NCBI GenBank assembly: GCA_028695445.1
Contig: JAQVIV010000001.1
Location: 6,028-70,027 of the forward strand
Source of the DNA: Candidatus Shapirobacteria bacterium
GTDB taxonomy: Bacteria; Patescibacteriota; Microgenomatia; 0-14-0-10-38-17
DNA: 64,000 bases
Direction of reading: 5' to 3'
Shown: piece after piece, positions 2,832 to 26,545 of the stretch
How the letters are laid out: the number at the start of each line of letters is the position of its first letter
Position numbering within the stretch: position 1 is the first letter of the stretch
Made by a program: the position numbers and the translations under genes
The notes under the pieces: model-generated
What the model saw: only the letters and a program-made list of their open reading frames with translations
The model's database searches: none
Told to the model about the DNA's origin: nothing

Positions 2832-2844
2832 TAAAATTCCAGCT

Positions 2845-4477: not shown

Positions 4478-4680
4478 AACACTTTCAATAATTATAACAA
4501 GTTTCGGGGTCGCAGGCTGTTATCACTTTCACTTTTTTTAGCTTTCCAGGAGTCTATTAAATAACTGGCTCCATCAAAAGAACAACCATAAGGTTTTTCT
4601 GACTCAACAAAGATCCGGAACCGAAACTGTGAAAAAGGTTCCTCTTTATCTTGCCAGCCTAATCCACTAAAATAAAGCTC

Positions 4681-6699: not shown

Positions 6700-6818
6700 T
6701 GTTCAAAATAAGTTCCGATTTCTAAACAAATCTTAAATCACAATTTATAAAAAATATTAGTCTGATTGGTCTTATTGGACCGATATTTATAAGAATTAAA
6801 AATTAGAAATTTATACCC

Positions 6819-8621
6819 GTGTCTTTGCTTGATTCTCTAAATCCCCAACAAAAGAAGGCCGTTTGCTTCAACCATGGTCCATTGTTAATTCTGGCTGGAG
6901 CCGGTTCGGGAAAAACTAGAGTCATCACCTACCGAACCGCCTACTTAATCAAAGAAAATTTAGCCAAACCCGAAGAAATCCTTTGTATTACCTTCACCAA
7001 TAAGGCCGCTCAAGAAATGAAGAGCCGACTAGAAGAACTGCTCTCCTTTTATCCCGGCCTTCCCTGGACCGGAACTTTCCACGCCTTCTGTGCTCGCCTT
7101 TTGCGCCTTGAGGGCCAGGCGATCGGGATCCCCTCAAATTATCTTATTTGGGACAGAACCGACCAACTATCAATCATTAAAAAAATCATATCAAGAAAAA
7201 GCAGTCAAAAACACTCTCCCACCACTATTATCAACAATATTTCTGGAGCCAAAAACGAACTTATCGGCCCGCTAGACTATGCTCGCTTTGCCCAAGGTTC
7301 TTTTCAGGAATTGGTCGCCGAAATTTACCTTGCCTACCAAAAAGAACTTCGTTTGTCGGGCGCTCTTGATTTCGATGATCTTTTGGTAAAGACGGTCAAC
7401 CTCTTTGACCAAATGCCAAAAATTCTAGAAAAATATCAGGAACACTATCGCTATCTTTTTGTTGATGAATATCAAGACACCAATCGAGCCCAATACCAAC
7501 TAACCAAAGGCTTAGCGCAAAAACATCACAATCTCTGTGTTGTTGCCGATGCCTCCCAGTCAATTTATAGTTGGCGAGGAGCCGATTATCGCAACATTAG
7601 CCGAATTCAGAAAGATTTTCCTGAAATTGGGGTAATTAATTTGGAACAAAATTATCGCTCTAGTCAAAATATCCTCGATACCGCCTATCATGTTATCAGC
7701 CAAAACCGATCTCACCCAATTCTTAACCTCTGGACAAAGAATAGCCGGGGCGAAAAAATTACCACCTATCAAGCTGAAAGCGCCCAAGATGAGGCCCAAT
7801 TCATTATCAAACATATTATTACCAGTAAAAATCAGGGCCGACCACTAAACGATTTCGCTATTCTCTATCGAACCAATGCTCAGTCAAGAATCTTAGAAGA
7901 AGCCCTGCTTCACTATAATATACCGTACCAGTTAGTTGGCGGTTTTCGTTTTTATGAGCGAAAAGAAATTAAAGATATCTTGGCGTTTTTAAAAATTATT
8001 GCCAACCCCAAAGATCTGGCCTCAACAGAGCGGGTGAGGAAAATTGGCAAAAAAATCCTAGCCACCGTAAAGACTTTAACCAAAAATAAAAAAAATCAAT
8101 CCTTAAAAACCCTTGAGGTTATTAATCTTGTTTTAAACAAAACCGGTTATCTGTCTCGTTTTCGGGTAGAAAACGAAGAAGACATGAGCCGACTAGAAAA
8201 CATCAGAGAACTTAAAAGTGTCGCCCTGGAGCTTCCCGACTTAAATCAATTTTTAGAAAATATCGCCCTAATGGAGCAAGAATATTTTCCTCAAGGAAAA
8301 ATAACCAAAGAGGGGCAAAAAAAGGAAAAAATTACCCTAATGACTCTTCACGCCGCCAAAGGAACAGAGTTTGGGGTGGTTTTCTTGGCCGGATTTGAAG
8401 AGGGTTTACTGCCCCACTCAAGATCCCTGTTTGATAAAGAATCCTTAGAAGAAGAAAGAAGACTGGCCTACGTGGGTATTACCCGAGCCAAAAATAAACT
8501 GTTTTTAACCTATGCTTCTTCCCGATTAATTTTTGGCCAAAATCAAACCAATGGATCATCAAGGTTTTTGGCTGATATTCCTGAAAATTTAATCGATCAA
8601 CAAACTATTTCGTGGCTTTAA
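6819..8621 (+). CDS. pcrA: ATP-dependent DNA helicase UvrD/PcrA (compact, 600 aa), GTG start
   Basis: Walker A 'AGAGSGKTRVIT', 'DEYQDTN' Walker B, UvrD motifs (YRSSQNIL, LMTLHAAKGTEF, VGITRAK). Confidence 0.85.
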   Translation: MSLLDSLNPQQKKAVCFNHGPLLILAGAGSGKTRVITYRTAYLIKENLAKPEEILCITFTNKAAQEMKSRLEELLSFYPGLPWTGTFHAFCARLLRLEGQAIGIPSNYLIWDRTDQLSIIKKIISRKSSQKHSPTTIINNISGAKNELIGPLDYARFAQGSFQELVAEIYLAYQKELRLSGALDFDDLLVKTVNLFDQMPKILEKYQEHYRYLFVDEYQDTNRAQYQLTKGLAQKHHNLCVVADASQSIYSWRGADYRNISRIQKDFPEIGVINLEQNYRSSQNILDTAYHVISQNRSHPILNLWTKNSRGEKITTYQAESAQDEAQFIIKHIITSKNQGRPLNDFAILYRTNAQSRILEEALLHYNIPYQLVGGFRFYERKEIKDILAFLKIIANPKDLASTERVRKIGKKILATVKTLTKNKKNQSLKTLEVINLVLNKTGYLSRFRVENEEDMSRLENIRELKSVALELPDLNQFLENIALMEQEYFPQGKITKEGQKKEKITLMTLHAAKGTEFGVVFLAGFEEGLLPHSRSLFDKESLEEERRLAYVGITRAKNKLFLTYASSRLIFGQNQTNGSSRFLADIPENLIDQQTISWL

Positions 8622-8889
8622 TTTGAAAATCGGTTAAAGAAACCTTTTTTATTTTAGACCGATCAACCACCTCAACATCATCAACTCTGGCCAGCGGTGA
8701 ACCTTGGTGAAACCAGACGAGCAGCTTGGCAATTTTTTCTTCCTCGCCGAAAACTTCAGTTTCGACTCGACCATCAAGACGGTTTCTAACCCAGCCAATC
8801 AAGCCCAACCGCTGGGCCTTTTGTTGAGCAAAAAAACGAAAACCAACCTTTTGTACTCGACCAGAAATAAAGACATGAACCCTAATCAT
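8605..8889 (-). CDS. acyP: acylphosphatase
   Basis: 'VHVFISGRVQKVGFRFF...GWVRNRLDGRVE' acylphosphatase signatures. Convergent with pcrA, 17-nt overlap. Confidence 0.7.
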   Translation of the reverse strand: MIRVHVFISGRVQKVGFRFFAQQKAQRLGLIGWVRNRLDGRVETEVFGEEEKIAKLLVWFHQGSPLARVDDVEVVDRSKIKKVSLTDFQIKATK

Positions 8890-9023
8890 CTAAAAAAAAT
8901 AAAATTAATTGCTATATTGCTAAGTTACTAATAAGTATTTCTTTCAAAAATAGGCCCAAAAGAACAATATAACAATTACTCTTTTTTTGAGTTTCTTTCA
9001 TCAGTAAGTTATTATAACAATTA

Positions 9024-10013
9024 ATGAGCCCTCAATTAAATTCTAATCCTCGACAGCAAGAATACGACCCGCTGGTTAATCATCCGATTCAGTCCTGGGC
9101 CTGGGGGGAGTTTAGAAAAAAAATGACCGCCCAGGTTGACCGTTTTATTATCAATCAAGAAGCGGGTCAAATTTTTTTTTATCAATTACCACTGTTTCCT
9201 TTTACTATTGGTCACTGCCCAAAAATTAATTTTATCAACCGACAACTAATCGATCATCTCACCCTCCTTGGCCAAAAAAGACAAGCCTTATTTATTAAAA
9301 TTGAGCCTCATATTCTGGCTAATCCCAAAAAAGAGAAAGAACTATCAGCTCTTGGCCTACACCGAGGAAGAGAAAATTTTTCCCAATACACTATGGTAAT
9401 TAACCTTAATCAAAGTCCCGATCAACTTCTGGCCAGCTTTGCCTCTAAAACCCGCTACAATATTCGCTTGGCCAAAAGAAAGGGAGTAAGGGTTATCAAA
9501 GACAATTCTACCGCCGCTTTTAACATTTACTGGCGATTGACAAAAAAAACCACTGCCCGACAGGGTTTCTACGCCCATAATCAAGACTATCATGAAAAAA
9601 TGTGGCAAACCATGAGCCGGGCCGGTATTGCTCATCTTTTTCGAGCCGAATACCAAAAAGAAACTCTGGCCGCCTGGATTCTTTTCAAGTTTGGGAACAC
9701 CCTTTACTACCCCTATGGGGCCTCATCCCGAAAACATCGCCAAGTTATGGCTTCCAATTTATTAATGTGGGAGGCAATTTTGTTTGGTCAAAAAAGTGGC
9801 TGTCAACAATTTGATCTTTGGGGAACGCCAGGACCAAACCCCGAAAAAACCAATCCCTGGTATGGTTTTCATCGTTTCAAAGCCGGCTATAATCCAGAAA
9901 CTATAAAGCTTCTGGGAGCCCACGACTTGATCATCAAACCAAGCCTATACCCCTTCTACCAAGCCCTTGACAGTCTTCGCCGCCAATATTTAAAGTTTAA
10001 AACTAAACTTTAG
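9024..10013 (+). CDS. FemAB-family peptidoglycan interpeptide-bridge aminoacyltransferase (FemX-like)
   Basis: N-terminal 'IQSWAWGEF' resembles the FemAB signature 'LQSWEWGEF'; 'KTRYNIRLAKRKGV' block; ~330 aa. Confidence 0.6.
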   Translation: MSPQLNSNPRQQEYDPLVNHPIQSWAWGEFRKKMTAQVDRFIINQEAGQIFFYQLPLFPFTIGHCPKINFINRQLIDHLTLLGQKRQALFIKIEPHILANPKKEKELSALGLHRGRENFSQYTMVINLNQSPDQLLASFASKTRYNIRLAKRKGVRVIKDNSTAAFNIYWRLTKKTTARQGFYAHNQDYHEKMWQTMSRAGIAHLFRAEYQKETLAAWILFKFGNTLYYPYGASSRKHRQVMASNLLMWEAILFGQKSGCQQFDLWGTPGPNPEKTNPWYGFHRFKAGYNPETIKLLGAHDLIIKPSLYPFYQALDSLRRQYLKFKTKL

Positions 10014-10107
10014 TTTTAAACAAAAAACCGATTTTGGACATTGATAATATCAATTCCGCTTGCGGTTTTGAGAGTGGCGATTTTCTTCTGCCTTGGTATA
10101 ATTGGTC

Positions 10108-10137
10108 AACACGGGCAAGAGGTGCCCGTGTTTTTTT
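10108..10137 (+). terminator. rho-independent terminator-like hairpin (CACGGGCA-agagg-TGCCCGTG + T7)
   Basis: Perfect 8-bp GC-rich stem followed by TTTTTTT. Member of the CACGGGC hairpin repeat family. Confidence 0.5.
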
Positions 10138-10160
10138 AGTCTAAAAAAATTTAAAAAATA

Positions 10161-10973
10161 ATGAAAATTGGCGTTTTTGATTCTGGCTTGGGAGGATTAT
10201 CAATTTTGAAATCCTTGAAAAAGTCTCTCCCTCAATACGACTATCTTTATTTGGGTGATAGCCTTCACGTCCCCTATGGCGATAAAGACCCTGAAAAAAT
10301 CACTACCTGGGCGAAAAAAATTATTCCCTTCTTTATTGAAAAAAACTGTTGTTTGATAATCTTTGCCTGCAACACCATCACTGCCACCTCGCTATCCCAA
10401 ATCCAAGAAAAATTTGACCACCAAATTAAGGTTTTGGGCATTATCAGGCCAACCAGCGAATTTTTGCTTGCCAATCCGGCCAGGAAAATCGGTATTATCG
10501 GCACTACCAATACCATTGTCTCAAACATTTTCACTCACGATCTTGAAAAGATTAGCCCCAAAAAAAGAATTAATTACCATCAACAAGCCTGTCCCGGCCT
10601 AGTAGAAGAAATCGAAAAGGGTCCACCCTATTCCAAAAAGATGAAAACGATTCTCTCTTCTTGCCTTGCTCTCTTAACAGAAAAAAAAGTTGACGTTCTG
10701 GTTTTGGGATGTACTCATTACAACTTAATTGCCGACCAAATCCAAACTCTACTTCCTAAAACTAAAATTATTACCCAAGGCGATATTGCCGCTCAAAAAC
10801 TGGCTGCCTATCTAAACCGTCATCTGGACTTGGCCCAAAAAATTACCTGCCAATCAAAACTAGAACTTTACTTTACTAAAATAAAGGTAAATTATTCTTT
10901 TCTGGTTAATTTCTTTCTGGATAACCGCGAACAATCAGTTGAGTTAAAATTAGCTAAAATCAACTTTTCTTAA
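10161..10973 (+). CDS. murI: glutamate racemase
   Basis: 'KIGVFDSGLGGLSI', 'ACNT', 'LGCTHY' catalytic motifs. Confidence 0.8.
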   Translation: MKIGVFDSGLGGLSILKSLKKSLPQYDYLYLGDSLHVPYGDKDPEKITTWAKKIIPFFIEKNCCLIIFACNTITATSLSQIQEKFDHQIKVLGIIRPTSEFLLANPARKIGIIGTTNTIVSNIFTHDLEKISPKKRINYHQQACPGLVEEIEKGPPYSKKMKTILSSCLALLTEKKVDVLVLGCTHYNLIADQIQTLLPKTKIITQGDIAAQKLAAYLNRHLDLAQKITCQSKLELYFTKIKVNYSFLVNFFLDNREQSVELKLAKINFS

Positions 10974-10983
10974 ACAAGAAGGC

Positions 10984-12021
10984 TTATTCTCCCAACAGGA
11001 TAATATTGGCCTGATAGTCCAAAGAAACCCTTTCGGCTGAAGTTACCAGAGTTTGGTGGTCAATAAAGCTGGCTACGACCAGTTTTTTATGCTCCCGATC
11101 AAGCTCAGAAAAAATATCATCCAACAATAAAACCGGCCGGCGGTTAGCCGCTTGCTCCAAAAACCTTAACTGGGCTAATTTCAACCATAAAACACTCAGG
11201 CGCTGTTCCCCTCGAGAACCAAAAATAGCTAAATCTTGATTATTGGCAAAAACTAGAAAATCATCGCGGTGAGGACCGGAAAGAGTTTGGCCGGCGGCAA
11301 CTTCAACTGCCTGCTGATCAGCTAATTTTTGAGGCGAAATAATGTTGGGCTGATAACTAATCTCGTATCCGGCCGCCGATTCCTGACAATTAATAAACTC
11401 TATTAGTTTTCTTCTTTTTTGACTAATTTCCTGGCCATTATCAAGCAAAAGCCGGTCCCAAAAAAACAGGGCTTTGGGGGTGGTCTGGCCGCTCCTGATC
11501 TGTTCCAAAACTTTATTTCGAGAGCGAAGACCTTTCTGGTAAGACCGTCTGGCCCGATAGTAGTCTTGATCGGCCTGGTCTAAAACATCATCCAAAAATC
11601 GCCGCCGAAAAGAGGGGGAATCAGTAACAATATCTAAATCTTGAGGAGCAAAAAGAACCGTCAGCAAACAACCAATAAATTTAGCCTGGCTTCTTTTTAT
11701 GCCATCAAGAGAAAACTGCCTTAGGGGCGTTTTCTTACCATTAATTTCTCCCCTTGATAAAGCTGATGCCAGTTTTTGTTGTTCTTGACCCTGCTCTATT
11801 AACCCTCCAATATGAGCAACAGGAGATTGGTAATTAATCATCTGGCTAATCTTGCTAGCCCGAAAGCTTCTTCCAGTAGAAAGCAAAACTATGGCTTCTA
11901 AAAGGTTGGTTTTTCCAGAAGCATTGGGACCCAAAATGAGATTAATACCATCAGAAAAAGAAAAGCTTCTTTCTTCTTCATAATTGCGAAAACCGGTTAA
12001 AGATAATTCCTTTAAAAACAC
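10984..12021 (-). CDS. recF: DNA replication and repair protein RecF
   Basis: 'LTGFRNYEE', Walker A 'GPNASGKTNLLEAI', C-terminal 'LLLDDIFSELD' signature. Confidence 0.85.
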   Translation of the reverse strand: MFLKELSLTGFRNYEEERSFSFSDGINLILGPNASGKTNLLEAIVLLSTGRSFRASKISQMINYQSPVAHIGGLIEQGQEQQKLASALSRGEINGKKTPLRQFSLDGIKRSQAKFIGCLLTVLFAPQDLDIVTDSPSFRRRFLDDVLDQADQDYYRARRSYQKGLRSRNKVLEQIRSGQTTPKALFFWDRLLLDNGQEISQKRRKLIEFINCQESAAGYEISYQPNIISPQKLADQQAVEVAAGQTLSGPHRDDFLVFANNQDLAIFGSRGEQRLSVLWLKLAQLRFLEQAANRRPVLLLDDIFSELDREHKKLVVASFIDHQTLVTSAERVSLDYQANIILLGE

Positions 12022-12120
12022 CCTGTTTAATTCCTAATTGTTCTAATTGATCTAAATAAACCCCAATTTTCAATTTTTAACTTTTAATTTTGAATTTTGA
12101 ATTTTGAATTGTTAATTATT

Positions 12121-12972
12121 CTATTTCTGGCACCCGGGACACCAAAAGGTACTACGATTATTTTGTTTGATTTTTTTTACTATCCCCCCACAGGAATAAC
12201 AAGGCTTGCCCTCTCTTTGATAAACCCCAAGCTTGTTCTGATATCGGCCCGGGGAGGCGTCAGGCCTAACATAGGCCTGATCGGCGGCGCTAGTGCCGCC
12301 ATAATCAATGGCTTCGGATAAAATTTCTTTTATGGCCCGATACAGCCTGCTAATCTCTTGGTCTGAGAGTGAGTTGGCCTGGCGGCGGGGGCTAACTCTT
12401 GCCGCAAATAAAACCTCGCTAGCATAGATATTGCCAATCCCCGCCACCAATCTTTGATCTAAAAGAGCCATTTTCACAACTCGCCTGGTCCGACCCAGAC
12501 TGTTAATAAAATACCTTAAAGTAAAATCTTTTCCTAATGGCTCCGGACCAAAGTCTGCCAGTTCTACCTCCGCCTGTTTTTTAGTTAAAAGCTTGAACCA
12601 GCCAAACTTTCTCAAGTCATTAAAAAATAGCCTTGAACTATCATCAAGGTTAATAACCAGCCTGGTTGTTTTGTTGGGCAATTGATTAAGAATAAACGGC
12701 AAGGGATGACCAACACTGACCAACCTCTTCTTGTTCGATAAATAGATAATCTGGCCGGTCATTTTAAGATGAACCAGCAAGATCAGACCGTTAATATCAA
12801 TAACCAATACTTTGGCCCGCCGCCAAATTGATTTAATCTCCCGGCCAACGACCTTTTTAGGATCACCCAAAAATTGTTTTTTTTCTAAGACCTCGATCTT
12901 GGCAATCTTTTTGCCAACAATTCTTTTTTCAAGTTCTCGCCTAACTGTTTCTACTTCCGGTAATTCGGGCAC
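12121..12972 (-). CDS. mutM: formamidopyrimidine-DNA glycosylase
   Basis: N-terminal 'MPELPEVETVRR', C-terminal zinc finger 'CYSCGG...FWCPGCQ'. Confidence 0.85.
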   Translation of the reverse strand: MPELPEVETVRRELEKRIVGKKIAKIEVLEKKQFLGDPKKVVGREIKSIWRRAKVLVIDINGLILLVHLKMTGQIIYLSNKKRLVSVGHPLPFILNQLPNKTTRLVINLDDSSRLFFNDLRKFGWFKLLTKKQAEVELADFGPEPLGKDFTLRYFINSLGRTRRVVKMALLDQRLVAGIGNIYASEVLFAARVSPRRQANSLSDQEISRLYRAIKEILSEAIDYGGTSAADQAYVRPDASPGRYQNKLGVYQREGKPCYSCGGIVKKIKQNNRSTFWCPGCQK

Positions 12973-14310: not shown

Positions 14311-15195
14311 TTAAAATAAATTCATCTGTTCGTTCTTCCTTTCCAGATCCGCCATAAGAGAGCGAAATCCCAAAGAAGAAAAGGCTGATTTCAACTCCTG
14401 GGCATTGACCCGATCAAGACGGTAATTGGTTAAATCAACCTTAATGGGTACCTGGCAGTTAATTTTAGCCAAATCGGCCGACAGGAAAACATCATCCTGA
14501 TAGGAAACCAGCTTTTCTCTTATCGCACAAGAATCAATTTTAGCCAGATTATCATAAATCGCCCCCAAGGTCCCAAAGCAATTTAATAACTTAACTCCGG
14601 TCTTGGGGCCAATTCCCAAAGCGCCTGGATAATTATCCGAATTGTCCCCCACCAACCCCTTATAATCAACTACCTGACCGGGCTTAATGCCCAGATCTTT
14701 TTTAACAAAGACAGAGTCAACAATTTGGCCGCCAGACAAACCGTTCCTTGGTAAAAATAAATTAATCCTCTCATCAACTAACTGCATTAAATCTCTATCG
14801 CCGGTAACAATTAACACCGGCAGTTTTTTGCTAACTCTTTTGGCTACCGTACCAATAACATCATCGGCCTCAAAGCCGGTTTTTTGCTTATTGGCGATTT
14901 TGGCTCGATTTAAAATCTCTCTTACCAAACCAATCTGGCTAGCCAATTTCGGGTCGGTTTTGGGCCTTTTGGCTTGGTAACCGACAAATTTTTCGTGACG
15001 AAAATTGGGCCCGGGGGCATCAAGAGCAACAAGAAAGTAGTCGGGAGAAAAATCGGCCCAAAGTTTAAAAATCATTTTGAAAAACCCATAAACGGCTCCG
15101 GTTGGCTGACCGCCGGGAGCCGTTAAGGCCGGTAGGGCGTGAAAGGCACGGTGCAAAACAGCATGGCCATCAACAATAATCAACTGCTTATTCAT
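14311..15195 (-). CDS. stand-alone 5'-3' exonuclease (Pol I N-terminal domain/FEN-like)
   Basis: 'LIIVDGHAVLHRAFHALP' with acidic metal-binding clusters; H3TH region 'GDNSDNYPGALGIGPKTG'. Start placed at the internal Met to avoid overlapping ftsH. Confidence 0.7.
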   Translation of the reverse strand: MNKQLIIVDGHAVLHRAFHALPALTAPGGQPTGAVYGFFKMIFKLWADFSPDYFLVALDAPGPNFRHEKFVGYQAKRPKTDPKLASQIGLVREILNRAKIANKQKTGFEADDVIGTVAKRVSKKLPVLIVTGDRDLMQLVDERINLFLPRNGLSGGQIVDSVFVKKDLGIKPGQVVDYKGLVGDNSDNYPGALGIGPKTGVKLLNCFGTLGAIYDNLAKIDSCAIREKLVSYQDDVFLSADLAKINCQVPIKVDLTNYRLDRVNAQELKSAFSSLGFRSLMADLERKNEQMNLF

Positions 15196-17056
15196 TGGAT
15201 TTCCTTTTTTTGCCAACCACCCTCTCAAACTCCGCCTGATCAAGAGTTTCTTTAACCAGCAGCTCTTTGGCCAATCTGATTAGGATTTTCTTATTCTCCT
15301 TTAATATTGTCTTGGCCTGACGATAAGCTTTTTTAATAATGGCTTCTATTTCTCCATCAATCCTGGCTTTCATTTTGGCCGATACTGAATCAACAACCAA
15401 CCATTCTTCTTCCCCGTCCTGACCATCCCAAGTAACTGGTCCCAAAGAACTCATACCAAAATCAACTACCATACTTCGGGCCAGCCGATTAGCCTTTTTA
15501 ATATCATCAGAAGCCCCGGTTGTCATCTCTGAAAAAACCAATTCTTCAGCGGCTCGTCCGCCCAATAGAACCGACAATCTTTCCATGAGTCGAGTTTTAG
15601 TCTCCTGGGTTCGATCTTGAATTGGAGAAATCATCGTATGACCCAGGGTTAAACCTCGGGCAACAATAGAAACTCGACCAATAGGATCAACATTAGGCAA
15701 AAGATGAGCAATTAAGGCATGTCCCGATTCGTGATAGGCGGCAATTTTCCGTTCTTGTTCTGATTGTAATCTTTTCTTTTGCGGTCCTAGTTTTACTTTA
15801 GTGGCCGCCTCTTCTAAATCCTCCATTTCGATTGCCTTTTTGTTAGCTCTGGCCGCCAAAATTGCTGCTTCATTGAGCATATTCTCTAGATCAGCCCCAG
15901 AAAAACCGACTGTTTGCTTGGCCGCCTTTTCCCAGTCAACGGATTTATCAAAAGGTTTCCCCTGAGCATGAATTTTCAAAATCGCCCCCCGCCCCTGAAT
16001 ATCAGGCATATCCAAAACCACCCGCCGGTCAAAACGACCAGGCCGAAGCAGAGCCGAATCCAAAAGATCGGGGCGATTTGAAGCTCCAATGACAATCACG
16101 TTATCGTTGGGGGAAAAACCATCCATCTCTACCAGCATCTGGTTTAAGGTTTGTTCTCTTTCGTCATGACCGCTGCTAACAGTCCGAGATCGCGATCGGC
16201 CAATGCTTTCAATTTCATCAATAAAAATAATGGCCGGGGCGTTCTTTTTGGCTGTTTCAAATAAATCGCGCATTCGGGCCGAACCAACCCCGACCAACAT
16301 TTCCATAAATTCTGAACCGGCCATAGAATAAAAGGGGACATTAGCTTCTCCGGCTACTGCCCGAGCCAACAGGGTCTTACCGGTTCCCGGCGGCCCAACT
16401 AACAGCACTCCTTTGGGTGTTCTGGCCCCTAAGCGGCGATATTTAGCAGGATGTTTCAAGAAATCTACCACTTCTTCCAGTTCATTTTTGGCCTCATCAA
16501 CACCAGCCACGTCCGCAAAAGTAGCATCTTGCTTGCCCTTAAAAAATTGCCTTGCTTTGGATTTGCCAAAAGAAAAAATCGAGTCTTGAGCTCCTCGGGC
16601 CTGTTTAAAAGTAAAGTAAAAAAAGGCTCCAATCAAAACGAGCGGAATAATGGTTAACAAAATGTCAATCCAAATTTGCGATAGGCTTTCGTCTTTAACC
16701 TTAATTTCTAATTCTGATGGATCAATCCCCTCCTGTTGCAAAAGACTCACCAGACTATCGCCAGATTCTTTTCTGGTGGTGGTAAAAGATTGATCTTGAT
16801 AGTAAAGATCAATCTGGTTGCCGGAAATTTCAATTTTCTCGACTTTTTCGTTTTTTATATCAGAAAGGGCCTGAGAGAAGGAAATCTCTTCTGGTGAAAT
16901 AGCAAAATTTGCCAAAGCCCCTAAAAGCCAAAAGATTAAAAAAATCGCCAAAACCCAAGTCAAAATCTTTTTAAGATCTATCTTTATCTCTACTTTTTTA
17001 AACTTCTTTTGGGATAATTCGGAGAAGGGGTTGGTTTTTTTGTCTTTTTCAGGCAT
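15188..17056 (-). CDS. ftsH: ATP-dependent zinc metalloprotease FtsH
   Basis: N-terminal TM, AAA Walker A '[17 protein letters not shown]', SRH region, 'HESGHAL' zinc site. Confidence 0.9.
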
Positions 17057-17594: not shown

Positions 17595-17963
17595 ATGTAT
17601 AAATTCGAAAAATTAAGGGTTTGGCAATCGGCGATGGATTTGGTAGTTGAAGTTTACAAATTCACAAAACAGCTACCCAAAGAGGAAACTTATGGCCTAA
17701 GAGACCAAATAAGAAGAGCAAGCGTTTCTATTGCTTTAAACATTGCCGAAGGGACGGGAGATAAAAGCGACAAAGAATTAATAAGATATCTTTATTTATC
17801 TAAAAAGTCTCTTTTTGAAACAATAACCGGATTAAAGCTTACTCAAAGAATTTATCAACTAAAGCCAGAACAAATTTTAAAAAATTGCGATAACCTTGGT
17901 AGATCGCTTCAAGCTTTAATAAACTCTTTATCTAAAAGCCAAAAACTAAAGACTAACGACTAA
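17595..17963 (+). CDS. four-helix-bundle protein (TIGR02436-like, '23S rRNA intervening-sequence protein' family)
   Basis: 'KFEKLRVWQSAMDLVVEVYKFTKQLPKEE..GLRDQIRRASVSIALNIAEG' hallmark. Its C-terminal codons lie in the right inverted repeat. Confidence 0.7.
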   Translation: MYKFEKLRVWQSAMDLVVEVYKFTKQLPKEETYGLRDQIRRASVSIALNIAEGTGDKSDKELIRYLYLSKKSLFETITGLKLTQRIYQLKPEQILKNCDNLGRSLQALINSLSKSQKLKTND

Positions 17964-18166: not shown

Positions 18167-18529
18167 CTAAAAGATAATTCCCCTAAAAAATAATTCCCAC
18201 CATTGCCGCCAGGGGGGCAGCCAATCTTTAGAGTCAGCGGTCACTTTTTCTATTCCAAAAATATCTTCTGGCAAGATCAAGACTGTTTCGTCCTTAGTCA
18301 AGCCCAAGCTATTACGCGCTTCTTGTTCTAAAAATTGCTCCGTCTTAACATAATCGAGCTGTGCCCTGAGCTGTTCATTGCTTTCTCTTAGAGCTTCCAG
18401 ATCCTGTTTTTCTTTTCTGACTACCAGACCCCGATTGACAAGATTAACGGTGTTGCTGGATAAAGAAACAATAGCAAAAAGCAAAAACAACAATAGCAGA
18501 ATTTTAAAGACTTTCCCCATGGTTGACAT
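18167..18529 (-). CDS. FtsB/DivIC-like septum formation initiator (short TM + coiled coil)
   Basis: N-terminal TM 'ILLLLFLLFAIV', followed by a coiled-coil 'KQDLEALRESNEQLRAQLDYVKTEQFLEQEAR'. Start chosen at an internal Met. Confidence 0.4.
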   Translation of the reverse strand: MSTMGKVFKILLLLFLLFAIVSLSSNTVNLVNRGLVVRKEKQDLEALRESNEQLRAQLDYVKTEQFLEQEARNSLGLTKDETVLILPEDIFGIEKVTADSKDWLPPWRQWWELFFRGIIF

Positions 18530-18647
18530 AGAGGCCGATCCGGTGTTATTATAAGCTATAAATGAGCTTAATTTCTTCACTGGCAAGCTTTTCCTTAAAT
18601 AAAAAGGCTCCCACAATCAATAAAGTAGGCTATTTTTAAACAAACAA

Positions 18648-19520
18648 ATGAACAACAACCTAACCTCTCTTGATGGGGCCATAAGTAAATTCCTAACTCG
18701 CTTGAAAAACGAGAACCGTTCCAGCAACACTATCATAGCATACGAAAACGACCTTAAACAGCTAGTCGAATTCATTGGCCAAGATAATGTTGTCAACGCC
18801 AATCAAATCGGTACCGACCATATTAAAAATTTTAAAAATTACCTCCTAAAAGAAAAAAAATACACTAACAAAACCGTTTCCCGAAAATTAAATTCTATTA
18901 AGTCTCTTTTTCGTTTTTTGACCGCTTCCGGGGTGATTAGCCAAGATCCCGCCAACAATATCACTCATCCAAAAATCAGTCAAAAACCACCACGAATTCT
19001 TTCTCCCCTAGAATACCGCGCCCTAAGAGATGTTTGTCGAGACGACCCAAGAAGCTATGCCATTATCGAGCTTATGCTTCAAGCGGGTTTGCGAATTTCT
19101 GAGGCGGCCAACCTAGAAGTAACCGATATCCAAGAAGATAAAATTATTGTCCGCCCCTACGAATCCCACGGAGGGCGAGTCATTCCCTTAAATAGAGCGG
19201 CCAAAAAGGCGATTGAAGATTACTTGGAAGAACGACCCAAAACCAAAAAATCAACCAACTTGTTTATTACCAAAAACGGCAATCCTTTGCTGGTAAGAAA
19301 CATCAGAAACAGCATCAATCGCTATTTCAAAATTGCTGAAATTGCCGATGTTTATGTTAATAACCTGCGCGATACTTTTGTTGTCCAGCAATTAAAAGCC
19401 GGCGTTCCTCTAAACATTGTCTCCCAAATTATCGGCCATAAGCGAGTTTCTTCAACTGAAAAATATTTAGAGCTAGTCGAAGAAAGAGAAACTGATAATA
19501 TCAAACTAAAAGAGCTCTAG
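18648..19520 (+). CDS. tyrosine-type site-specific recombinase (XerC/XerD-like)
   Basis: N-terminal SAM-like core-binding domain; C-terminal 'GLRISE', 'IIGHKRVSSTEKYLEL' (HxxR...Y) catalytic motifs. Confidence 0.75.
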   Translation: MNNNLTSLDGAISKFLTRLKNENRSSNTIIAYENDLKQLVEFIGQDNVVNANQIGTDHIKNFKNYLLKEKKYTNKTVSRKLNSIKSLFRFLTASGVISQDPANNITHPKISQKPPRILSPLEYRALRDVCRDDPRSYAIIELMLQAGLRISEAANLEVTDIQEDKIIVRPYESHGGRVIPLNRAAKKAIEDYLEERPKTKKSTNLFITKNGNPLLVRNIRNSINRYFKIAEIADVYVNNLRDTFVVQQLKAGVPLNIVSQIIGHKRVSSTEKYLELVEERETDNIKLKEL

Positions 19521-20554: not shown

Positions 20555-22897
20555 TCACAGCTTCGCCCGCCTGGCTACCTGGGCCTCTATTAGGGCCCTG
20601 TCTTGAGCATATTTGAGCCGAGATAACTCAGTAATATTTTTGGCCAATTCCCAATTATCAAGAGCCTTTTCTTTGGCCATATCTTTGGTCAAATCAAGAG
20701 AAAATGGCGGCACCGGCTCATTATTAACAATAGTTTTAACATAGGCATTAAATCTTTCGATATTTAAAAGGTCGTTTTCAGAAAAATCCGGTTGGAGCTC
20801 GTGTTGAAGATAAGAAGCATCGGCCACCCCTACTCGAAAAGAAACCAGAGTGCCGACATTGCCAAAAACAGCATTTTTAACCTCTTCGTCCATCTGGCCA
20901 ATAAATTGGTTGGCTACTGTCAGATTAAGGTGATACTTTCTAGCCTCAGATAAAATTTGGGCAAAATCGGGAGTAGCAAAATTCTGAAATTCATCAACAT
21001 AAAGATAAAAATCACGCCGGTTGTCTTCAGGAATATCCTGCCGACTCATGGCGGCAATTAACAATTTAGGAATTAATACCAAGCCCAAAAAGCTTGAATT
21101 TTCCTCACCGATTTTACCCTTAGCTAAATTAATCAACAAGATTTTACCCTCATCCATCACCTTTCTAAAATCAAAGGCTGATTGTGATTGGCCGATAATG
21201 TTGCGCATCATGCTGTCGGTAACAAAACGGCCAAATTTGGAAACAATATAATCTAAAACTTCACTCTTGTGAAAATCGCTAGTTTGGGCAATTTGATCAG
21301 TCCAATAGCGGCGAACCATCGGATCCTTAAGTTTGGGCAGTAATTCCCGAACATAAGAAGCGTCAGTCAGAGCACGAACCACCTCAACAAAAGTCGCTCC
21401 TGGCTCAGTCATCACCGTTAACATGGCATTTCTAATGGCATGTTCAAACCGAGGGCCAATAATACCAGTCTTATAAGGATCATAAAGCTTGTACATTAGG
21501 TTAATAATTGAAGAAACCACAAAGTTTTTTTGCTCCTCGGTGTAGGCCTCTAAAAGATTAAGGCCCATAGGGCGGCTGGTATCGGAAGGATCAAAATAAA
21601 TAACATCTTCTGCTCGTTCAGCCGGGATTCTCGGCAAAATCTTTTCGATAGTATCATGAGGATCAATAAAACAAACCCCCTTGCCTTCTTCGATGTCCTG
21701 AACGATCATTTGTTTTAATAACTCCGACTTACCGGTGCCGGTTTTACCAATAATATAAACATGGCGGCGGCGATCGTCTTCAGAAAGACAAACCGACCGG
21801 ATTTCGCCCCGATGAACGCTTTTCCCCAGATAAAGACCGCTTTTAGGTACTTCGGGCGGCACTGGAGCTCTTTTGGCATTAAGCCAAGCGATATTGGGTG
21901 TTTCCACCGTCTTATTGGGTAGATGAAAAATTGTTGCTAATTCTGCCGAATTAAGAATAATTCTATTTTTATTTAACGGCCAAAGCGGCCGATAGCGGTA
22001 AATAAAATCAATCATAAAGGTTCTTTTCCACCAAATTTTCTTACTGCTAAAACCGTTTTGATCAGAGCTAAACTGAGACAAGGCGCTTTTAATCGAAGAC
22101 AAATGAGCCTTGGCCTGCTCAATACTTTTCGAACAAACCACCACCCTTAACTCAACTTCAAAACCGGGCCTAGAACATTTTTCATCAATCTGCTCCAGGG
22201 TTTTACTATCAACTTTAAATTCGGCTTTTTCAGGATCAGCTTCCTTTTTCTTGGTCGATGATAAAAAAGACCGGCCCAGCTTTTGCCACTTGCTCCCGGT
22301 AGGGGCAATCAAAATTTGAATAGCAACCCCCTCCCCCTCAATAAGCTTGGATAGGGTTGAGGCTAAAGAAGAAAGAGGATCAACAGAAAAATCCTGATAG
22401 GTTTTAATGGGATAAAAGGGTGAATTTTTAAACTCAAAAACGGCATAGGCGACCTTACTGTCTTTGCTAAAAATATTGTATTCGTCTACCCTCTTAATCA
22501 CTGCCGTCGGGTAAAGACCATAAATCTGGCGCTCTAAAAGATCAACTTTTTTTTGAGGAATAGCAAAATAAAAGCGAATGCTGTCCTGAGTACCAACAAT
22601 TTCGGCGGTAAAAAAAAATTTAGGCTTTAAAAAGGCCAATTTGCCGCCAACTTTTAAGGAGTGTAGGTTGGTAAAGAGTTGTTCGGCGGCATCAATTTTA
22701 ATTTCATTGTCACGGGGCAAGATTACTTGCAGTAAAACCAAATCCAAGGAGTGTTGTTCCCGATTCCTTTCTCGCCAAAGCAAAAACAAGAAATAGATTA
22801 AAAATCCCAATAGAAACAAGAAAAAAACCGCCGCTCCTCCCAAGACAAAATAACGAATTAACAAATAAAATAAATCATTAAGGCTGTTAATAATCAT
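20555..22897 (-). CDS. membrane-anchored P-loop ATPase of the VirD4/TraD coupling-protein / HerA-FtsK (DUF87-like) type
   Basis: N-terminal TM segment. Walker A 'IIGKTGTGKSELL', Walker B 'FYLYVDEFQNF', and 'ARKYHLNLTVANQ' arginine-finger region typical of T4SS coupling ATPases. Confidence 0.5.
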   Translation of the reverse strand: MIINSLNDLFYLLIRYFVLGGAAVFFLFLLGFLIYFLFLLWRERNREQHSLDLVLLQVILPRDNEIKIDAAEQLFTNLHSLKVGGKLAFLKPKFFFTAEIVGTQDSIRFYFAIPQKKVDLLERQIYGLYPTAVIKRVDEYNIFSKDSKVAYAVFEFKNSPFYPIKTYQDFSVDPLSSLASTLSKLIEGEGVAIQILIAPTGSKWQKLGRSFLSSTKKKEADPEKAEFKVDSKTLEQIDEKCSRPGFEVELRVVVCSKSIEQAKAHLSSIKSALSQFSSDQNGFSSKKIWWKRTFMIDFIYRYRPLWPLNKNRIILNSAELATIFHLPNKTVETPNIAWLNAKRAPVPPEVPKSGLYLGKSVHRGEIRSVCLSEDDRRRHVYIIGKTGTGKSELLKQMIVQDIEEGKGVCFIDPHDTIEKILPRIPAERAEDVIYFDPSDTSRPMGLNLLEAYTEEQKNFVVSSIINLMYKLYDPYKTGIIGPRFEHAIRNAMLTVMTEPGATFVEVVRALTDASYVRELLPKLKDPMVRRYWTDQIAQTSDFHKSEVLDYIVSKFGRFVTDSMMRNIIGQSQSAFDFRKVMDEGKILLINLAKGKIGEENSSFLGLVLIPKLLIAAMSRQDIPEDNRRDFYLYVDEFQNFATPDFAQILSEARKYHLNLTVANQFIGQMDEEVKNAVFGNVGTLVSFRVGVADASYLQHELQPDFSENDLLNIERFNAYVKTIVNNEPVPPFSLDLTKDMAKEKALDNWELAKNITELSRLKYAQDRALIEAQVARRAKL

Positions 22898-23289
22898 AGC
22901 TCGCTTTTGAAATTAACCTGATGGCCTAACATTTTAGTTACCCTCTTTGACCATTCTGATAACCAGCGCCAAGCCGACTCAATTGATTCTTTTAAACCGG
23001 CTCGATATTCAGTTAAAGTTAGGGGCAAAATAATCTTGGGGGGTTGGGCCTGAGGAGAAGTTACTATAATTTGGCCGGTTTGGTCATCCAAAACTTGATT
23101 AGTCAAAAAGTGATCTTCTTTTTCAATTTTTTCTAAATAACCATCCAGCTCTGGGGAGAGTTTTGGAAAATGACCAATTTCAATAATATTGGCCTTCTCC
23201 TCCCCAAGACTTTCTTGAGACAATCTTTGAGGCTCTCTTTCCTTGCTGGCAAAACCGGTTGGGCTAGTATCACCTGATGCCATCTTCAC
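22894..23289 (-). CDS. small acidic hypothetical protein, translationally coupled to the downstream ATPase
   Basis: 131-aa ORF. Its stop overlaps the ATPase start (ATGA). No recognizable motifs. Confidence 0.35.
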   Translation of the reverse strand: MKMASGDTSPTGFASKEREPQRLSQESLGEEKANIIEIGHFPKLSPELDGYLEKIEKEDHFLTNQVLDDQTGQIIVTSPQAQPPKIILPLTLTEYRAGLKESIESAWRWLSEWSKRVTKMLGHQVNFKSEL

Positions 23290-24085: not shown

Positions 24086-24235
24086 TTATTTTCCGCTGTA
24101 CTCTTTCCTCATCTGATACTCGGACGCTTTGCCTTCGTTCCATTGGCTAACCGGACGCAAATAACCAACAATCCGGGAATAAACCTCGCAGGGGGTGCGA
24201 TCTTTTGGAGTTGCCTTGTTTTTCTTTTTAACCAT
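24086..24235 (-). CDS. 49-aa ORF encoding the NrdD C-terminal glycyl-radical domain (MVKKKNKATPKDRTPCEVYSRIVGYLRPVSQWNEGKASEYQMRKEYSGK)
   Basis: Hand-translated; not in the ORF track (<60 aa). 'RIVGYL...WN.GK..E...R' matches the class III RNR glycyl-radical loop (E. coli 'RVCGYLG..WNKGK'). SD 'GGAGG' 7 nt upstream of the ATG. Lies between truncated nrdD and nrdG. Confidence 0.55.
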   Translation of the reverse strand: MVKKKNKATPKDRTPCEVYSRIVGYLRPVSQWNEGKASEYQMRKEYSGK

Positions 24236-24484: not shown

Positions 24485-26545
24485 CTACTTCTCCTTATAC
24501 CCTATTTCTTCGTCGCACCTAGGACAAAATTGCCACTCGCCTGACAAATAACCATGCTTTGGACAAACAGAAAAGGTTGGGGTAATGGAAAAATAAGGCA
24601 GTTTATAATTGGCTGTTACTTTTTGGAGCAGATTTTTAACGCTTTCGGTATCAGGCAAACTTTCCCCTAAAAAGCCATGGATGACAGTGCCACCCGTATA
24701 CTTACATTGTAATTCATCCTGATGATCCAGGGCCTCAAAAAGGTCGGTGGTGTAATCGACCGGCAAATGAGTCGAGTTGGTATAAAAAGGCGCTTCTTTC
24801 TTTTCTTGGTAATTTTTTTCATTAGCACAAATAATTTTGGGAAATTGCTCTTTATCCAGCCTGGCGAAACGATAGGCGGTGCTTTCCGCCGGTGTGGCTT
24901 CAAGATTAAACATTTCCCCAGTTTCTTGCTGGTAAATTAAAATTTTTTCCCGCATATAATCCATTACCTCTAAAGCAAAAGCTTGCCCTTCGGGGTCGGC
25001 AATATTTTTCCCCATCAAGTTAACCAAGGCCTCATTCATACCGTTTAAGCCAATGGTGTTAAAGTGGTTGCGCCAGTAAACTTTATTGCGCTGATAAATA
25101 TCAGATAAATAATGGCGGCAGTAGGGGTACAGGCCGTCGTGGGTAAATTTTTCCACCGCCTCTCTTTTAATTATCAGCGAATCTTTGGCCAAATCCATTA
25201 GACGGCCAAGGAGAGTAAAGAATTTTCTTTTGGCAAATCCCTCGGTTTTAGAGCTTGCTTTGGCCAAATAACCAATTCGAGGCAAGTTGATGGTAACCAC
25301 CCCCAAGGAACCGGTTAGGGGATTGGCAGCAAACAACCCGCCTCGCCGCCTTAATTCCCGATTATCTAAGCGCAAACGACAACACATACTTCGAGCATCG
25401 TCAGGATCCATATCAGAATTAACAAAATTAGAAAAATAGGGAATACCATATTTTCTGGTCATTTCCCAAACCGGCTCCAAATTTTTATTATTCCAATCGA
25501 AGTCCTTGGTAATTGAATAGGTTGGAATTGGGAAGGTAAAGACTCGCCCTTGAGCATCGCCCTCCATCATGGTTTCGGCAAAAGCTCGATTAATCATATC
25601 CATTTCTTTTTGAAAATCTTCATACTTATCTTGGGTTGGCTGGCCGGCAATAACAACCGTTTCCTCGCCGACCATTTTGGTAGGATGAATATCCAAAGAA
25701 ATATTGGAAAAGGGGGTTTGGAAGCCCACTCTGGTAGGAACATTCATATTAAAAACAAACTCTTGAAGAGCCTGTTTAACCTGTTTATAGGTTAGGTTGT
25801 CATAACGAACAAAAGGAGCCAAATAGGTATCAAAATTGGAGACTGCTACTGCTCCAGCCACCTCGCCTTGAATGGTATACATAAAATTAACAATCTGCCC
25901 TAGAGCCGAAGAAAGGTGCCTTGGAGGAGCACTGTTAACCTTGCCGGAAACGCCGCCAAATCCCTTAATTAAAAAGTCTTTTAAGTCCCAGCCGGTACAA
26001 TAGGCCGAAAGGGAAGACAAATCATGAATGTGAAGATCGCCTTGGCGATGAGCCTTTCTTACCTCTCGAGAATAAATTTTATTAAGCCAAAAATTGGCCG
26101 AAATTATACTGGCCACATGATTATTCAAGCCCTGTAAAGAATAGGTCATGTTGGCATTCTCCTTTACTCGCCAGTCGCCCTGATTAAGATATTTTTCTGT
26201 TAACTCATCGGCATCGACCAAACTGCTAACGCTTCTTAATTTTTGGTGAAGCTGACGATAAAGGGTGTAGGCGCTATGGACTTCTTCGTGAGCACGCCTT
26301 AATAGAGTCTGCTCAACAATATCTTGAACCTGTTCTACCTCGGGAGTAATGGAAGAATTAAACCGCTTCTCAAGTTCTAAAACCACCTCTTTGGTTAGGC
26401 GGCGAACCTCTTGAACATCATCTTTACCGGCAGCCTTAAAAGCGGCCTTAATCGCCCTTCCAATCTTATTAGGACTAAAGGCCACTATCCGGCCATTTCT
26501 TTTTTTGATCCTGGTAATTTTTGATTTTATTCCTCCTCTAACCAT
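24485..26545 (-). CDS. nrdD: anaerobic ribonucleoside-triphosphate reductase large subunit (class III RNR), ending right after the Zn ribbon
   Basis: N-terminal ATP-cone ('KITRIKKRNGRIVAFSPNKIGRAIKAA'), conserved class III core, C-terminal 'CPKH...CPRC' Zn site; stops 9 residues later, before the 'RxxGY' glycyl-radical loop. Confidence 0.85.
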   Translation of the reverse strand: MVRGGIKSKITRIKKRNGRIVAFSPNKIGRAIKAAFKAAGKDDVQEVRRLTKEVVLELEKRFNSSITPEVEQVQDIVEQTLLRRAHEEVHSAYTLYRQLHQKLRSVSSLVDADELTEKYLNQGDWRVKENANMTYSLQGLNNHVASIISANFWLNKIYSREVRKAHRQGDLHIHDLSSLSAYCTGWDLKDFLIKGFGGVSGKVNSAPPRHLSSALGQIVNFMYTIQGEVAGAVAVSNFDTYLAPFVRYDNLTYKQVKQALQEFVFNMNVPTRVGFQTPFSNISLDIHPTKMVGEETVVIAGQPTQDKYEDFQKEMDMINRAFAETMMEGDAQGRVFTFPIPTYSITKDFDWNNKNLEPVWEMTRKYGIPYFSNFVNSDMDPDDARSMCCRLRLDNRELRRRGGLFAANPLTGSLGVVTINLPRIGYLAKASSKTEGFAKRKFFTLLGRLMDLAKDSLIIKREAVEKFTHDGLYPYCRHYLSDIYQRNKVYWRNHFNTIGLNGMNEALVNLMGKNIADPEGQAFALEVMDYMREKILIYQQETGEMFNLEATPAESTAYRFARLDKEQFPKIICANEKNYQEKKEAPFYTNSTHLPVDYTTDLFEALDHQDELQCKYTGGTVIHGFLGESLPDTESVKNLLQKVTANYKLPYFSITPTFSVCPKHGYLSGEWQFCPRCDEEIGYKEK

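Follow-up and report, generated by a model that had tools for sequence, protein, structure and literature searches.

A conserved two-gene module of Patescibacteria encoding a membrane-anchored ATPase with a predicted VirB4-like architecture and a coupling protein-like motor

The DNA considered here, called the window below, is a stretch of 64,000 nucleotides of contig JAQVIV010000001.1 (positions 6,028 to 70,027, forward strand, assembly GCA_028695445.1) from a Candidatus Shapirobacteria bacterium. Two overlapping genes on its reverse strand encode a membrane-anchored P-loop ATPase of 780 aa and a small partner protein (Table 1). The identification of this locus as a vertically inherited core two-gene module of Patescibacteria, the Candidate Phyla Radiation (CPR), is well supported. 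In its motor domain, the ATPase resembles the type IV coupling proteins (T4CPs) of type IV secretion systems (T4SSs), and its predicted overall architecture is that of a VirB4 protein.

Layout of the gene pair

The start codon of the ATPase gene (ATG, 22897-22895) overlaps the stop codon of the small open reading frame (ORF) upstream (TGA, 22896-22894). The resulting ATGA overlap, which a preliminary description of this DNA had interpreted as translational coupling, is confirmed, and the coupled arrangement is conserved in most related loci. The same description gave the small protein 131 aa. The ORF is indeed present, but its best start is the ATG at 23283, which is preceded by a GAGGTG Shine-Dalgarno sequence and used by gene callers; the GTG at 23289, which would yield the 131-aa product, is less likely. 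In a scan for promoters and terminators, sites were not clearly more numerous than in shuffled sequence, and the stretch between nrdG and the small ORF gave no clear promoter.

GC content and skew are uniform across the window, the rest of which encodes housekeeping functions. Three family scans were made on the window ORFs, two with all matches and the third (ORFs at 25-12972 and 31807-63895) with the best 25 of 44 families. They revealed no T4SS, relaxase, pilin or FtsK family among these ORFs, in line with the earlier remark that no T4SS, relaxase or pilin gene lies nearby.

Table 1. Features of the gene pair and of the neighbouring Xer-DivIC genes (positions in the window; aa residues refer to the ATPase)
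Feature	Position	Strand	Basis or remark
ATPase gene, 780 aa	20555-22897 (stop codon included)	-	ORF; membrane-anchored DUF8128 domain and T4CP-like ATPase
Small partner gene	22894-23283	-	ORF, start codon and Shine-Dalgarno sequence; 129 aa from ATG 23283
ATGA stop/start overlap, small ORF/ATPase	22894-22897	-	sequence; translational coupling
Single N-terminal transmembrane helix, about residues 17-41	22775-22849	-	Kyte-Doolittle maximum 2.84 at residue 22; long helix 2-42 in AlphaFold2 model
DUF8128 domain, residues 46-350 (about 305 aa)	21848-22762	-	alpha/beta; predicted VirB4 N-terminal-domain fold
RecA-like motor ATPase domain, residues 351-735	20693-21847	-	VirB4/VirD4/HerA clade
Walker A GKTGTGKS, residues 384-391	21725-21748	-	invariant in 44 homologs
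All-alpha insertion, residues 454-570, between Walker A and B	21188-21538	-	helices 454-568 in AlphaFold2 model
Walker B YLYVDE, residues 631-636	20990-21007	-	D635 and E636 invariant (44 homologs)
ARKYHLNLTVANQ motif, residues 652-664	20906-20944	-	R653, K654, N663 and Q664 invariant (44 homologs)
Xer-type tyrosine recombinase	18648-19520	+	divergent from DivIC; pair kept in about half of Microgenomates loci
DivIC	18167-18616	-	partner of the Xer-type recombinase; pair absent from Parcubacteria-type loci

Domains and sequence relatives of the ATPase

The ATPase is predicted to be anchored by a single N-terminal transmembrane (TM) helix. This helix is followed by the positively charged sequence WRERNRE, and the remainder of the protein is presumably cytoplasmic. 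The preliminary description had noticed an uncharacterized N-terminal domain of about 400 aa. The domain exists, but it spans about 305 aa, corresponds to Pfam family DUF8128 (PF26449) and probably adopts the fold of the VirB4 N-terminal domain (NTD), so that it is not novel. An identical protein exists in a metagenome-assembled genome (MAG) of Candidatus Shapirobacteria. PF26449 is found N-terminally on the identical database protein, where a P-loop ATPase follows it, and on all 120 homologs listed, out of at least 6,838 scored.

The TM helix, Walker A, Walker B and ARKYHLNLTVANQ are all confirmed, and the original assignment to the membrane-anchored ATPases of the VirD4/VirB4/HerA-FtsK superfamily stands. 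We take the ARKYHLNLTVANQ motif, from knowledge of the family, to hold the candidate arginine finger and the sensor glutamine that are typical of FtsK/HerA/VirB4/VirD4 ATPases. An IDPHD motif at residue 411 is also invariant in the 44 homologs compared. The all-alpha insertion is topologically placed like the all-alpha domain of T4CPs, which in conjugative T4CPs is a variable substrate-binding domain.

Hidden Markov model (HMM) searches gave several Pfam matches just above the cut-offs: DUF87 (26.8 bits), TrwB_AAD_bind (23.0 versus 20.5), TraG-D_C (22.6 versus 22) and T4SS-DNA_transf (21.7 versus 20.1). The best NCBIfam matches are to TraD/VirD4 families but lie far under their cut-offs; they include SXT_TraD (49.6 versus 366 bits) and a CD1115 VirD4-like family (32.3 versus 250 bits), whose match spans the whole nucleotide-binding domain. 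Weak NCBIfam matches to the archaeal DNA-import ATPases CedB and CedD were also obtained. The VirB4 models were not reached (TIGR00929, VirB4_CagE, 18.3 versus 643; AAA_10, 13.7 versus 27.5), and Pfam gave no PF03135 (CagE_TrbE_VirB) match. FtsK_SpoIIIE (PF01580) scored 16.9 bits, under its cut-off of 24, and Pfam detected none of the alpha, gamma or 4TM domains of FtsK. As for HerA, the score of NF040819 was 11.8 versus 970, only the central DUF87 domain matched, and no nuclease partner was found. Judging from these HMMs and from the motifs IDPHD, GLNLL and ARK...ANQ, the motor appears closest to the type IV coupling proteins (VirD4/TraD/TrwB).

Predicted structure of the ATPase

The AlphaFold2 model of the whole ATPase has a predicted local distance difference test score (pLDDT) of 81.9. 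When it was searched against the PDB with Foldseek, TrwK/VirB4 came first and matched over the full length (E about 1e-15), whereas TrwB, Cag-beta and HerA matched the C-terminal half only. In the structural-comparison table, the figures were 27.9 for the VirB4 C-terminal domain (4ag5), 26.4 for DptH, 24.9 for TrwB, 23.7 for HerA, 22.0 for DotL, 20.1 for Cag-beta, 16.9 for EccC, 16.7 for TcpA and 16.3 for FtsK. These comparisons indicate that DUF8128 has a VirB4-NTD-like fold and that the ATPase has the architecture of VirB4. According to the model, the ATPase is thus not a plain VirD4 but combines the VirB4 architecture with a motor of T4CP-like sequence.

This hybrid nature appears when the ATPase is set beside each known system. 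It shares with the type IV coupling proteins (VirD4/TrwB/TraD/DotL/Cag-beta) a membrane-anchored RecA-type motor, the Walker motifs, DPxG-type, NPL-like and R...Q motifs, and an all-alpha insertion between Walker A and B. However, it has one TM helix instead of the usual two, and it is encoded by a chromosomal core gene without linked relaxase or mating pair formation (MPF) genes. It shares with VirB4/TrwK the fold of the N-terminal domain followed by a C-terminal RecA-like ATPase, but differs from VirB4 by the lack of any VirB4 HMM match, by its location outside a T4SS cluster and by its T4CP-style all-alpha insertion. HerA carries a HAS-barrel N-terminal domain and works with NurA or a defence effector, while the window protein has the predicted VirB4-NTD fold instead. 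FtsK/SpoIIIE are likewise membrane-anchored motors of the same superfamily, but the window ATPase is devoid of their alpha, gamma and 4TM regions.

The small partner protein

The partner, described earlier as acidic, is so only in part. Its N-terminal half is acidic (pI 4.5) and variable, and the overall pI is 5.2, but the C-terminal 54 aa, which are conserved, are basic (pI 9.7) and Trp-rich, with the pattern KIILPLT...GLK...WRWLSEWSKRVTKMLG. The protein has no match in Pfam, NCBIfam, PHROG or PADLOC.

An iterated HMM found a partner homolog directly upstream of the ATPase gene, on the same strand, in 69 of the 77 Microgenomates loci; in seven of the other eight, a small but divergent ORF is present whose C-terminus is basic and contains Trp. 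The stop and start codons lie within 20 nt of each other, in either direction, in 59 of 72 Microgenomates loci (-4 nt in nine, -1 nt in eight). A small ORF also directly precedes the ATPase gene in 64 of 75 diverse loci, most of them of the Parcubacteria type; its median length is 149 aa and its median pI 5.5, and there is a -4 nt overlap in 12 of the 64. More than 150 related loci were compared and the great majority have the pair, so its arrangement is not due to chance.

The Parcubacteria-type partners form a main family (n = 34), a second family (n = 13) and singletons. A single family for all small partners was considered and rejected, since neither HMMs nor hhalign linked the Microgenomates type by homology to either of the two Parcubacteria families. 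Like the window partner, the other small partners gave no match in the family libraries searched. What is conserved in the partner is therefore its position and layout (an acidic, low-complexity N-terminal half and a short helical C-terminal domain), not a sequence family.

Small dedicated partners are known in the T4CP family, such as CagZ for Cag-beta, IcmS/W for DotL and TraM for TraD, and VirB4 has VirB3. Entry 8dol is among the Foldseek matches in the PDB. The presence of a small, translationally coupled gene upstream also resembles the virB3-virB4 arrangement, but the window partner, unlike VirB3, has no TM helix.

Distribution and selection

Close relatives of the ATPase were confirmed in 590 of 600 matched stretches from a one-genome-per-species collection, i.e. 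in at least 590 species genomes. The best 80 of these relatives all belong to Microgenomates lineages and include complete chromosomes. The DUF8128 domain alone matches 2,363 clusters at 50% identity (1,090 with E ≤ 1e-10), and full-length members measure about 780-1,130 aa. Through a distant member, P0214, the family extends to Parcubacteria (Portnoybacteria, Pacebacteria and others), and further members occur in candidate division Kazan.

Some lineages harbour tandem DUF8128 paralogs of about 840 and 1,075 aa, the window protein grouping with the shorter type. In two such loci, L175 (3558-11237) and L176 (4909-11216), an ORF of about 170 aa lies between the paralogs, accompanied in L175 by a sigma-70 gene, and genes for SecDF, RmuC and an AddA-type helicase-nuclease follow downstream. 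These tandem paralogs account for the approximately two 'T4CP' genes per CPR genome found in the literature.

The module is under strong purifying selection. Across Microgenomates orders, the median identity to the window protein is 27% for the TM helix, 56% for the DUF8128 domain, 80.5% for the motor domain and 84.6% for the all-alpha insertion, the highest value in the protein. Proteins of the same loci give medians of 57% (FtsH), 62% (NrdD), 49% (Xer) and 35% (small partner). The constraint on the all-alpha insertion argues for an invariant ligand and a core function.

These data bear directly on the proposal, made as an alternative in the preliminary description, that the genes form a two-gene anti-phage or defence ATPase cassette of the HerA/DUF87 type. 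PADLOC does report a match to mad8 (57.7 bits), and PIN toxin-antitoxin genes lie near one relative. However, the mad8 match covers the ATPase domain only and is generic to the fold, and no effector partner (nuclease, Sir2 or similar) is associated. Moreover, core synteny, near-universality in the phylum and a purifying selection stronger than that on FtsH are the opposite of what patchy, fast-evolving defence islands display, and the look-alike pair of S. epibionticum (see below) is essential. Neither a presence that varies between strains, nor a location in defence islands, nor a phage-resistance phenotype was seen. The defence proposal is therefore given up as scarcely probable.

Genomic neighbourhood

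In Microgenomates, the pair is flanked on one side by ribonucleotide reductase (RNR) genes and on the other by a divergent Xer-DivIC pair, past which FtsH and a 5'-3' exonuclease are encoded. Xer is found downstream within 2.5 kb in 24 of 50 Microgenomates loci and within 7 kb in 31 of 50, but the linkage is absent from most Gottesmanbacteria loci and from all sampled Parcubacteria-type loci. Being patchy in Microgenomates and absent from the Parcubacteria contexts, it reflects lineage synteny and is not a functional signature. In Parcubacteria-type contexts, no family other than the ORF at position -1 occurs in more than about 15% of loci. Neighbours below this level include DnaX, PMT-type glycosyltransferases, a GtrA-like protein and a protein of about 170-200 aa with an ANYASKSKLV motif; FtsQ-like POTRA genes are found upstream in some of these loci.

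The protein with the motif ANYASKSKLV.GD has no Pfam match. In 14 non-Microgenomates loci (e.g. L138, L140, L118, L127, L141, L175 at 6230-6742 and L176 at 7464-7988), its gene immediately follows the short paralog; the protein is absent from the window and from Microgenomates loci.

The proximity of Xer and DivIC in Microgenomates and of FtsQ-like genes in some Parcubacteria, together with the membrane anchor and the FtsK/HerA superfamily motor, might suggest that the ATPase is an FtsK-like motor for chromosome segregation or dimer resolution that acts with adjacent Xer and divisome proteins. This is very unlikely and largely refuted: PF01580 stays below its threshold, the Xer linkage is lost outside part of Microgenomates, and S. 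epibionticum possesses a separate, complete and canonical FtsK, SEML1_0096, which is essential according to transposon sequencing (Tn-seq; Wang et al. 2023). A scan of 2.4 Mb of CPR DNA for FtsK signatures matched only DUF8128 genes and is uninformative on canonical FtsK. Neither a firm placement in FtsK/SpoIIIE nor a lack of conservation of the small ORF, the two outcomes that the preliminary description had set against its own proposal, was found.

Phage relatives

The ATPase is matched by the phage protein family phrog_5156 (307 bits). SPO1-like Bacillus phages, CP-51 and phage G encode full-length homologs with about 22-24% identity over residues ~47-740. In SPO1 (L091, 3821-9331), the homolog gp27.4 is followed by gp27.3, of the Replic_Relax relaxase family, and an Alp7A-like actin, gp27.9, is encoded upstream. 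In phage G (L092, 3240-7382), gp156 follows gp155, a TraG-P-loop/AAA_10 ATPase; the annotation of gp156 as 'MsbA-like' looks wrong. Such phage genes have been described as a 'DNA translocation operon' that encodes a coupling ATPase without TM helices and is dispensable in the laboratory (Pathria et al. 2012, PMC3357382).

The phage coupling ATPases (SPO1 gp27.4, 0305phi8-36 orf201, phage G gp156) have, like the CPR ATPase, both a DUF8128-like N-terminal domain and the motor. They differ from it by the lack of a TM helix, and their genes adjoin a relaxase, an Alp7A-like actin or a VirB4-like ATPase, whereas the CPR gene is accompanied by the small acidic partner.

These homologs, the T4CP-like sequence and the tyrosine recombinase gene located 1 kb away could evoke a remnant or cargo of an integrated conjugative or other mobile element, or of a prophage. 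Such an origin has hardly any probability. The flanks of the pair are housekeeping genes, syntenic across orders, in DNA of uniform GC content and skew; the recombinase belongs to the conserved Xer-DivIC pair; the phage homologs are only about 22% identical; and no relaxase, repeats or attachment sites were noted.

Published T4SS data and the S. epibionticum counterpart

A survey of Patescibacteria by Quinonero-Coronel et al. (2025, PMC12102498) identified 5,713 VirD4-like T4CP homologs in 2,918 of 3,035 genomes, only 148 of them near virB4. T4CP genes were often sited away from MPF genes, and the authors noted that exaptation 'cannot be ruled out'. About 80% of Patescibacteria encode VirB4, and this canonical VirB4 is separate from the DUF8128 ATPase (PMC12102498). 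The DUF8128 class is thus already catalogued, both as a Pfam DUF and as 'T4CP homologues' (PMC12102498), and the locus is a typical member of it. The literature search found no paper on DUF8128. To our knowledge, the VirB4-like fold of DUF8128, the positionally conserved but non-homologous partner, the conservation of the all-alpha insertion, the link with phage coupling ATPases and the probable essential counterpart in S. epibionticum are not described in the literature searched.

This counterpart comes from the Tn-seq data of Wang et al. (2023). SEML1_0142 encodes a 1,019-aa TraM-recognition-domain protein with a P-loop domain at 381-800 and is scored ES/ES/ES. SEML1_0141, located 12 nt upstream on the same strand, encodes a 139-aa hypothetical protein and is scored GD/ES/ES. 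The two genes, both scored as essential, are not discussed by Wang et al. (2023). Another gene, SEML1_0293, encodes a 921-aa T4SS DNA-binding-domain protein, is preceded by a sigma factor gene and is non-essential.

The SEML1_0141/0142 pair resembles that of the window by the small ORF just upstream on the same strand and by the P-loop domain starting at about residue 381, but SEML1_0142 is longer (1,019 aa) than the window ATPase (780 aa). In this respect, the closest relative of the window protein outside Microgenomates, P0271 (45% identity), belongs to the window-type clade and measures 1,024 aa. Furthermore, a sigma-70 gene precedes the long DUF8128 paralog in L175, as is the case for SEML1_0293. 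From the layout of the pair, the sigma factor parallel and the size of P0271, we infer that SEML1_0141/0142 correspond to the window-type pair and SEML1_0293 to the long paralog.

Functional interpretation

The reading that we prefer, with a rough probability of one half, is that the pair encodes a coupling or translocation ATPase and its adaptor, which cooperate with the Patescibacteria T4SS. The ATPase would be anchored in the cytoplasmic membrane by its N-terminal helix, DUF8128 serving as a VirB4-NTD-like platform on which the RecA-type motor with its all-alpha insertion follows. By analogy with its structural relatives, it most likely forms a membrane-associated ring, in which ATP hydrolysis would power the delivery of a macromolecule, either nucleic acid or unfolded protein, to a membrane channel or its passage through one. 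The small protein would be an adaptor or regulator that docks via its conserved C-terminal amphipathic helix, while its variable acidic N-terminal half could contact the cargo or mimic nucleic acid. The most economical candidate for the channel is the chromosomal, relaxase-less, MPF-FATA-type T4SS, of which the ATPase would be the 'orphan T4CP'. Ring formation, the substrate, partner binding and cooperation with the T4SS are inferred.

Several observations weigh against this reading. Neither in the window nor in about 170 related loci does a T4SS, relaxase or pilin gene adjoin the pair, and no VirB3, VirB6 or VirB8 homolog was found beside the ATPase in the window and related loci. The all-alpha insertion is the most conserved part of the protein here, whereas it is variable in conjugative T4CPs, which also have no domain of 300 aa comparable to the 305-aa VirB4-NTD-like domain between TM helix and motor. 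The existence of at least three partner families without detectable homology (HMM, hhalign; probability 0.2%) is not what one expects of a fixed adaptor. T4CP-like genes occur in 2,918 genomes and VirB4 in 2,417 (PMC12102498). Some genomes may therefore possess the ATPase but no T4SS, with the caveat that incomplete MAGs confound the comparison. In S. epibionticum, the essential T4SS cluster contains no recognisable coupling protein (Wang et al. 2023), SEML1_0293 is probably the paralog cited as a dispensable T4CP homolog, and the orthology of SEML1_0142 is deduced from layout, not from sequence.

A serious rival is that the ATPase and its partner form a T4SS-independent housekeeping translocase, an inner-membrane machine of their own that would move nucleic acid, such as imported host RNA or DNA or the cell's own DNA, across or along the membrane in an essential, CPR-specific function unrelated to the VirB4 T4SS. 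The pair is never linked to T4SS genes in the ~170 loci, T4CP-like genes occur in about 96% of CPR genomes versus about 80% for VirB4, and a motor and all-alpha insertion conserved to such an extreme degree imply a ligand that is universal and invariant. The VirB4-like N-terminal domain and the TM anchor could suffice for docking at the membrane. The weak CedB/CedD matches, the phage relatives in DNA-translocation operons and the recurrence of DNA-metabolism genes nearby (RNR, RmuC, AddA-like helicase-nuclease, ExoIII, DnaX) point in the same direction, as does a 2026 preprint in which a Patescibacterium is reported to take up host RNA by a mechanism left unresolved there. However, no channel protein is conserved adjacent to the pair, and a pore is not likely to arise from a single TM helix per subunit; the DNA-metabolism neighbours are not consistently linked across classes. 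Such a translocase is possible but, on balance, less likely than the preferred reading. A more specific and distinctly less probable version is that an essential, T4SS-independent CPR inner-membrane motor, a VirB4-NTD/T4CP-motor hybrid derived from the common ancestor of both T4SS ATPases, drives the uptake or handling of host nucleic acids (RNA or DNA); if true, it would supply the energy, so far unaccounted for, on which the parasitic nucleotide economy of Patescibacteria runs.

Patescibacteria account for much of bacterial diversity. They live by taking macromolecules from their hosts via motors not yet known, and their T4SS is essential but has no recognised coupling protein or relaxase. 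The near-universal class of 'orphan T4CPs' now gains an anatomy, with a predicted VirB4-like N-terminal domain, a T4CP-like motor whose all-alpha insertion is unusually conserved, and an obligatory small partner. As a look-alike essential pair exists in the only genetically tractable CPR species, its function is directly testable. Finally, the hybrid architecture bears on the divergence of VirB4 and VirD4.

Other features of the window

The nrdD gene of the window is split. Its main ORF (24485-26545, reverse strand) ends within the Zn-ribbon, and the glycyl-radical motif (..SRIVGYLRP..) lies on a separate 49-aa ORF (24086-24235, reverse strand) with its own GGAGGTG Shine-Dalgarno sequence. The AT-rich gap of 249 nt between the two parts gave no credible Rfam family match, and the same gene calls are made on the near-identical contigs L001 and L002.

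Between FtsH and DivIC, the window encodes on the forward strand (17595-17963) a 122-aa protein of the 23S rRNA intervening-sequence family (PF05635, per the L002 call), homologs of which are found near the ATPase in a few other loci (L029, L065, L071). The listed ORF of the 5'-3' exonuclease, starting at TTG 15243, overlaps the 3' end of ftsH by 56 nt (15188-15243); its true start is probably an internal ATG (MNKQL...), in which case the overlap is an artefact of ORF listing. The window also encodes typical origin-proximal genes, for RNase P protein, YidC, an R3H (Jag-like) protein and a RecF/SMC-type ATPase, all among the ORFs at 25-12972 and 31807-63895. The cumulative GC skew is monotonic, which indicates that no origin lies inside it.

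In the public records, many contigs of clear Microgenomates affiliation (e.g. L007, L010, L014, L023) bear titles such as 'uncultured Gammaproteobacteria', 'Pseudomonadales', 'Nevskiaceae' or 'Candidatus Bathyarchaeia'; they are likely mislabelled MAGs.

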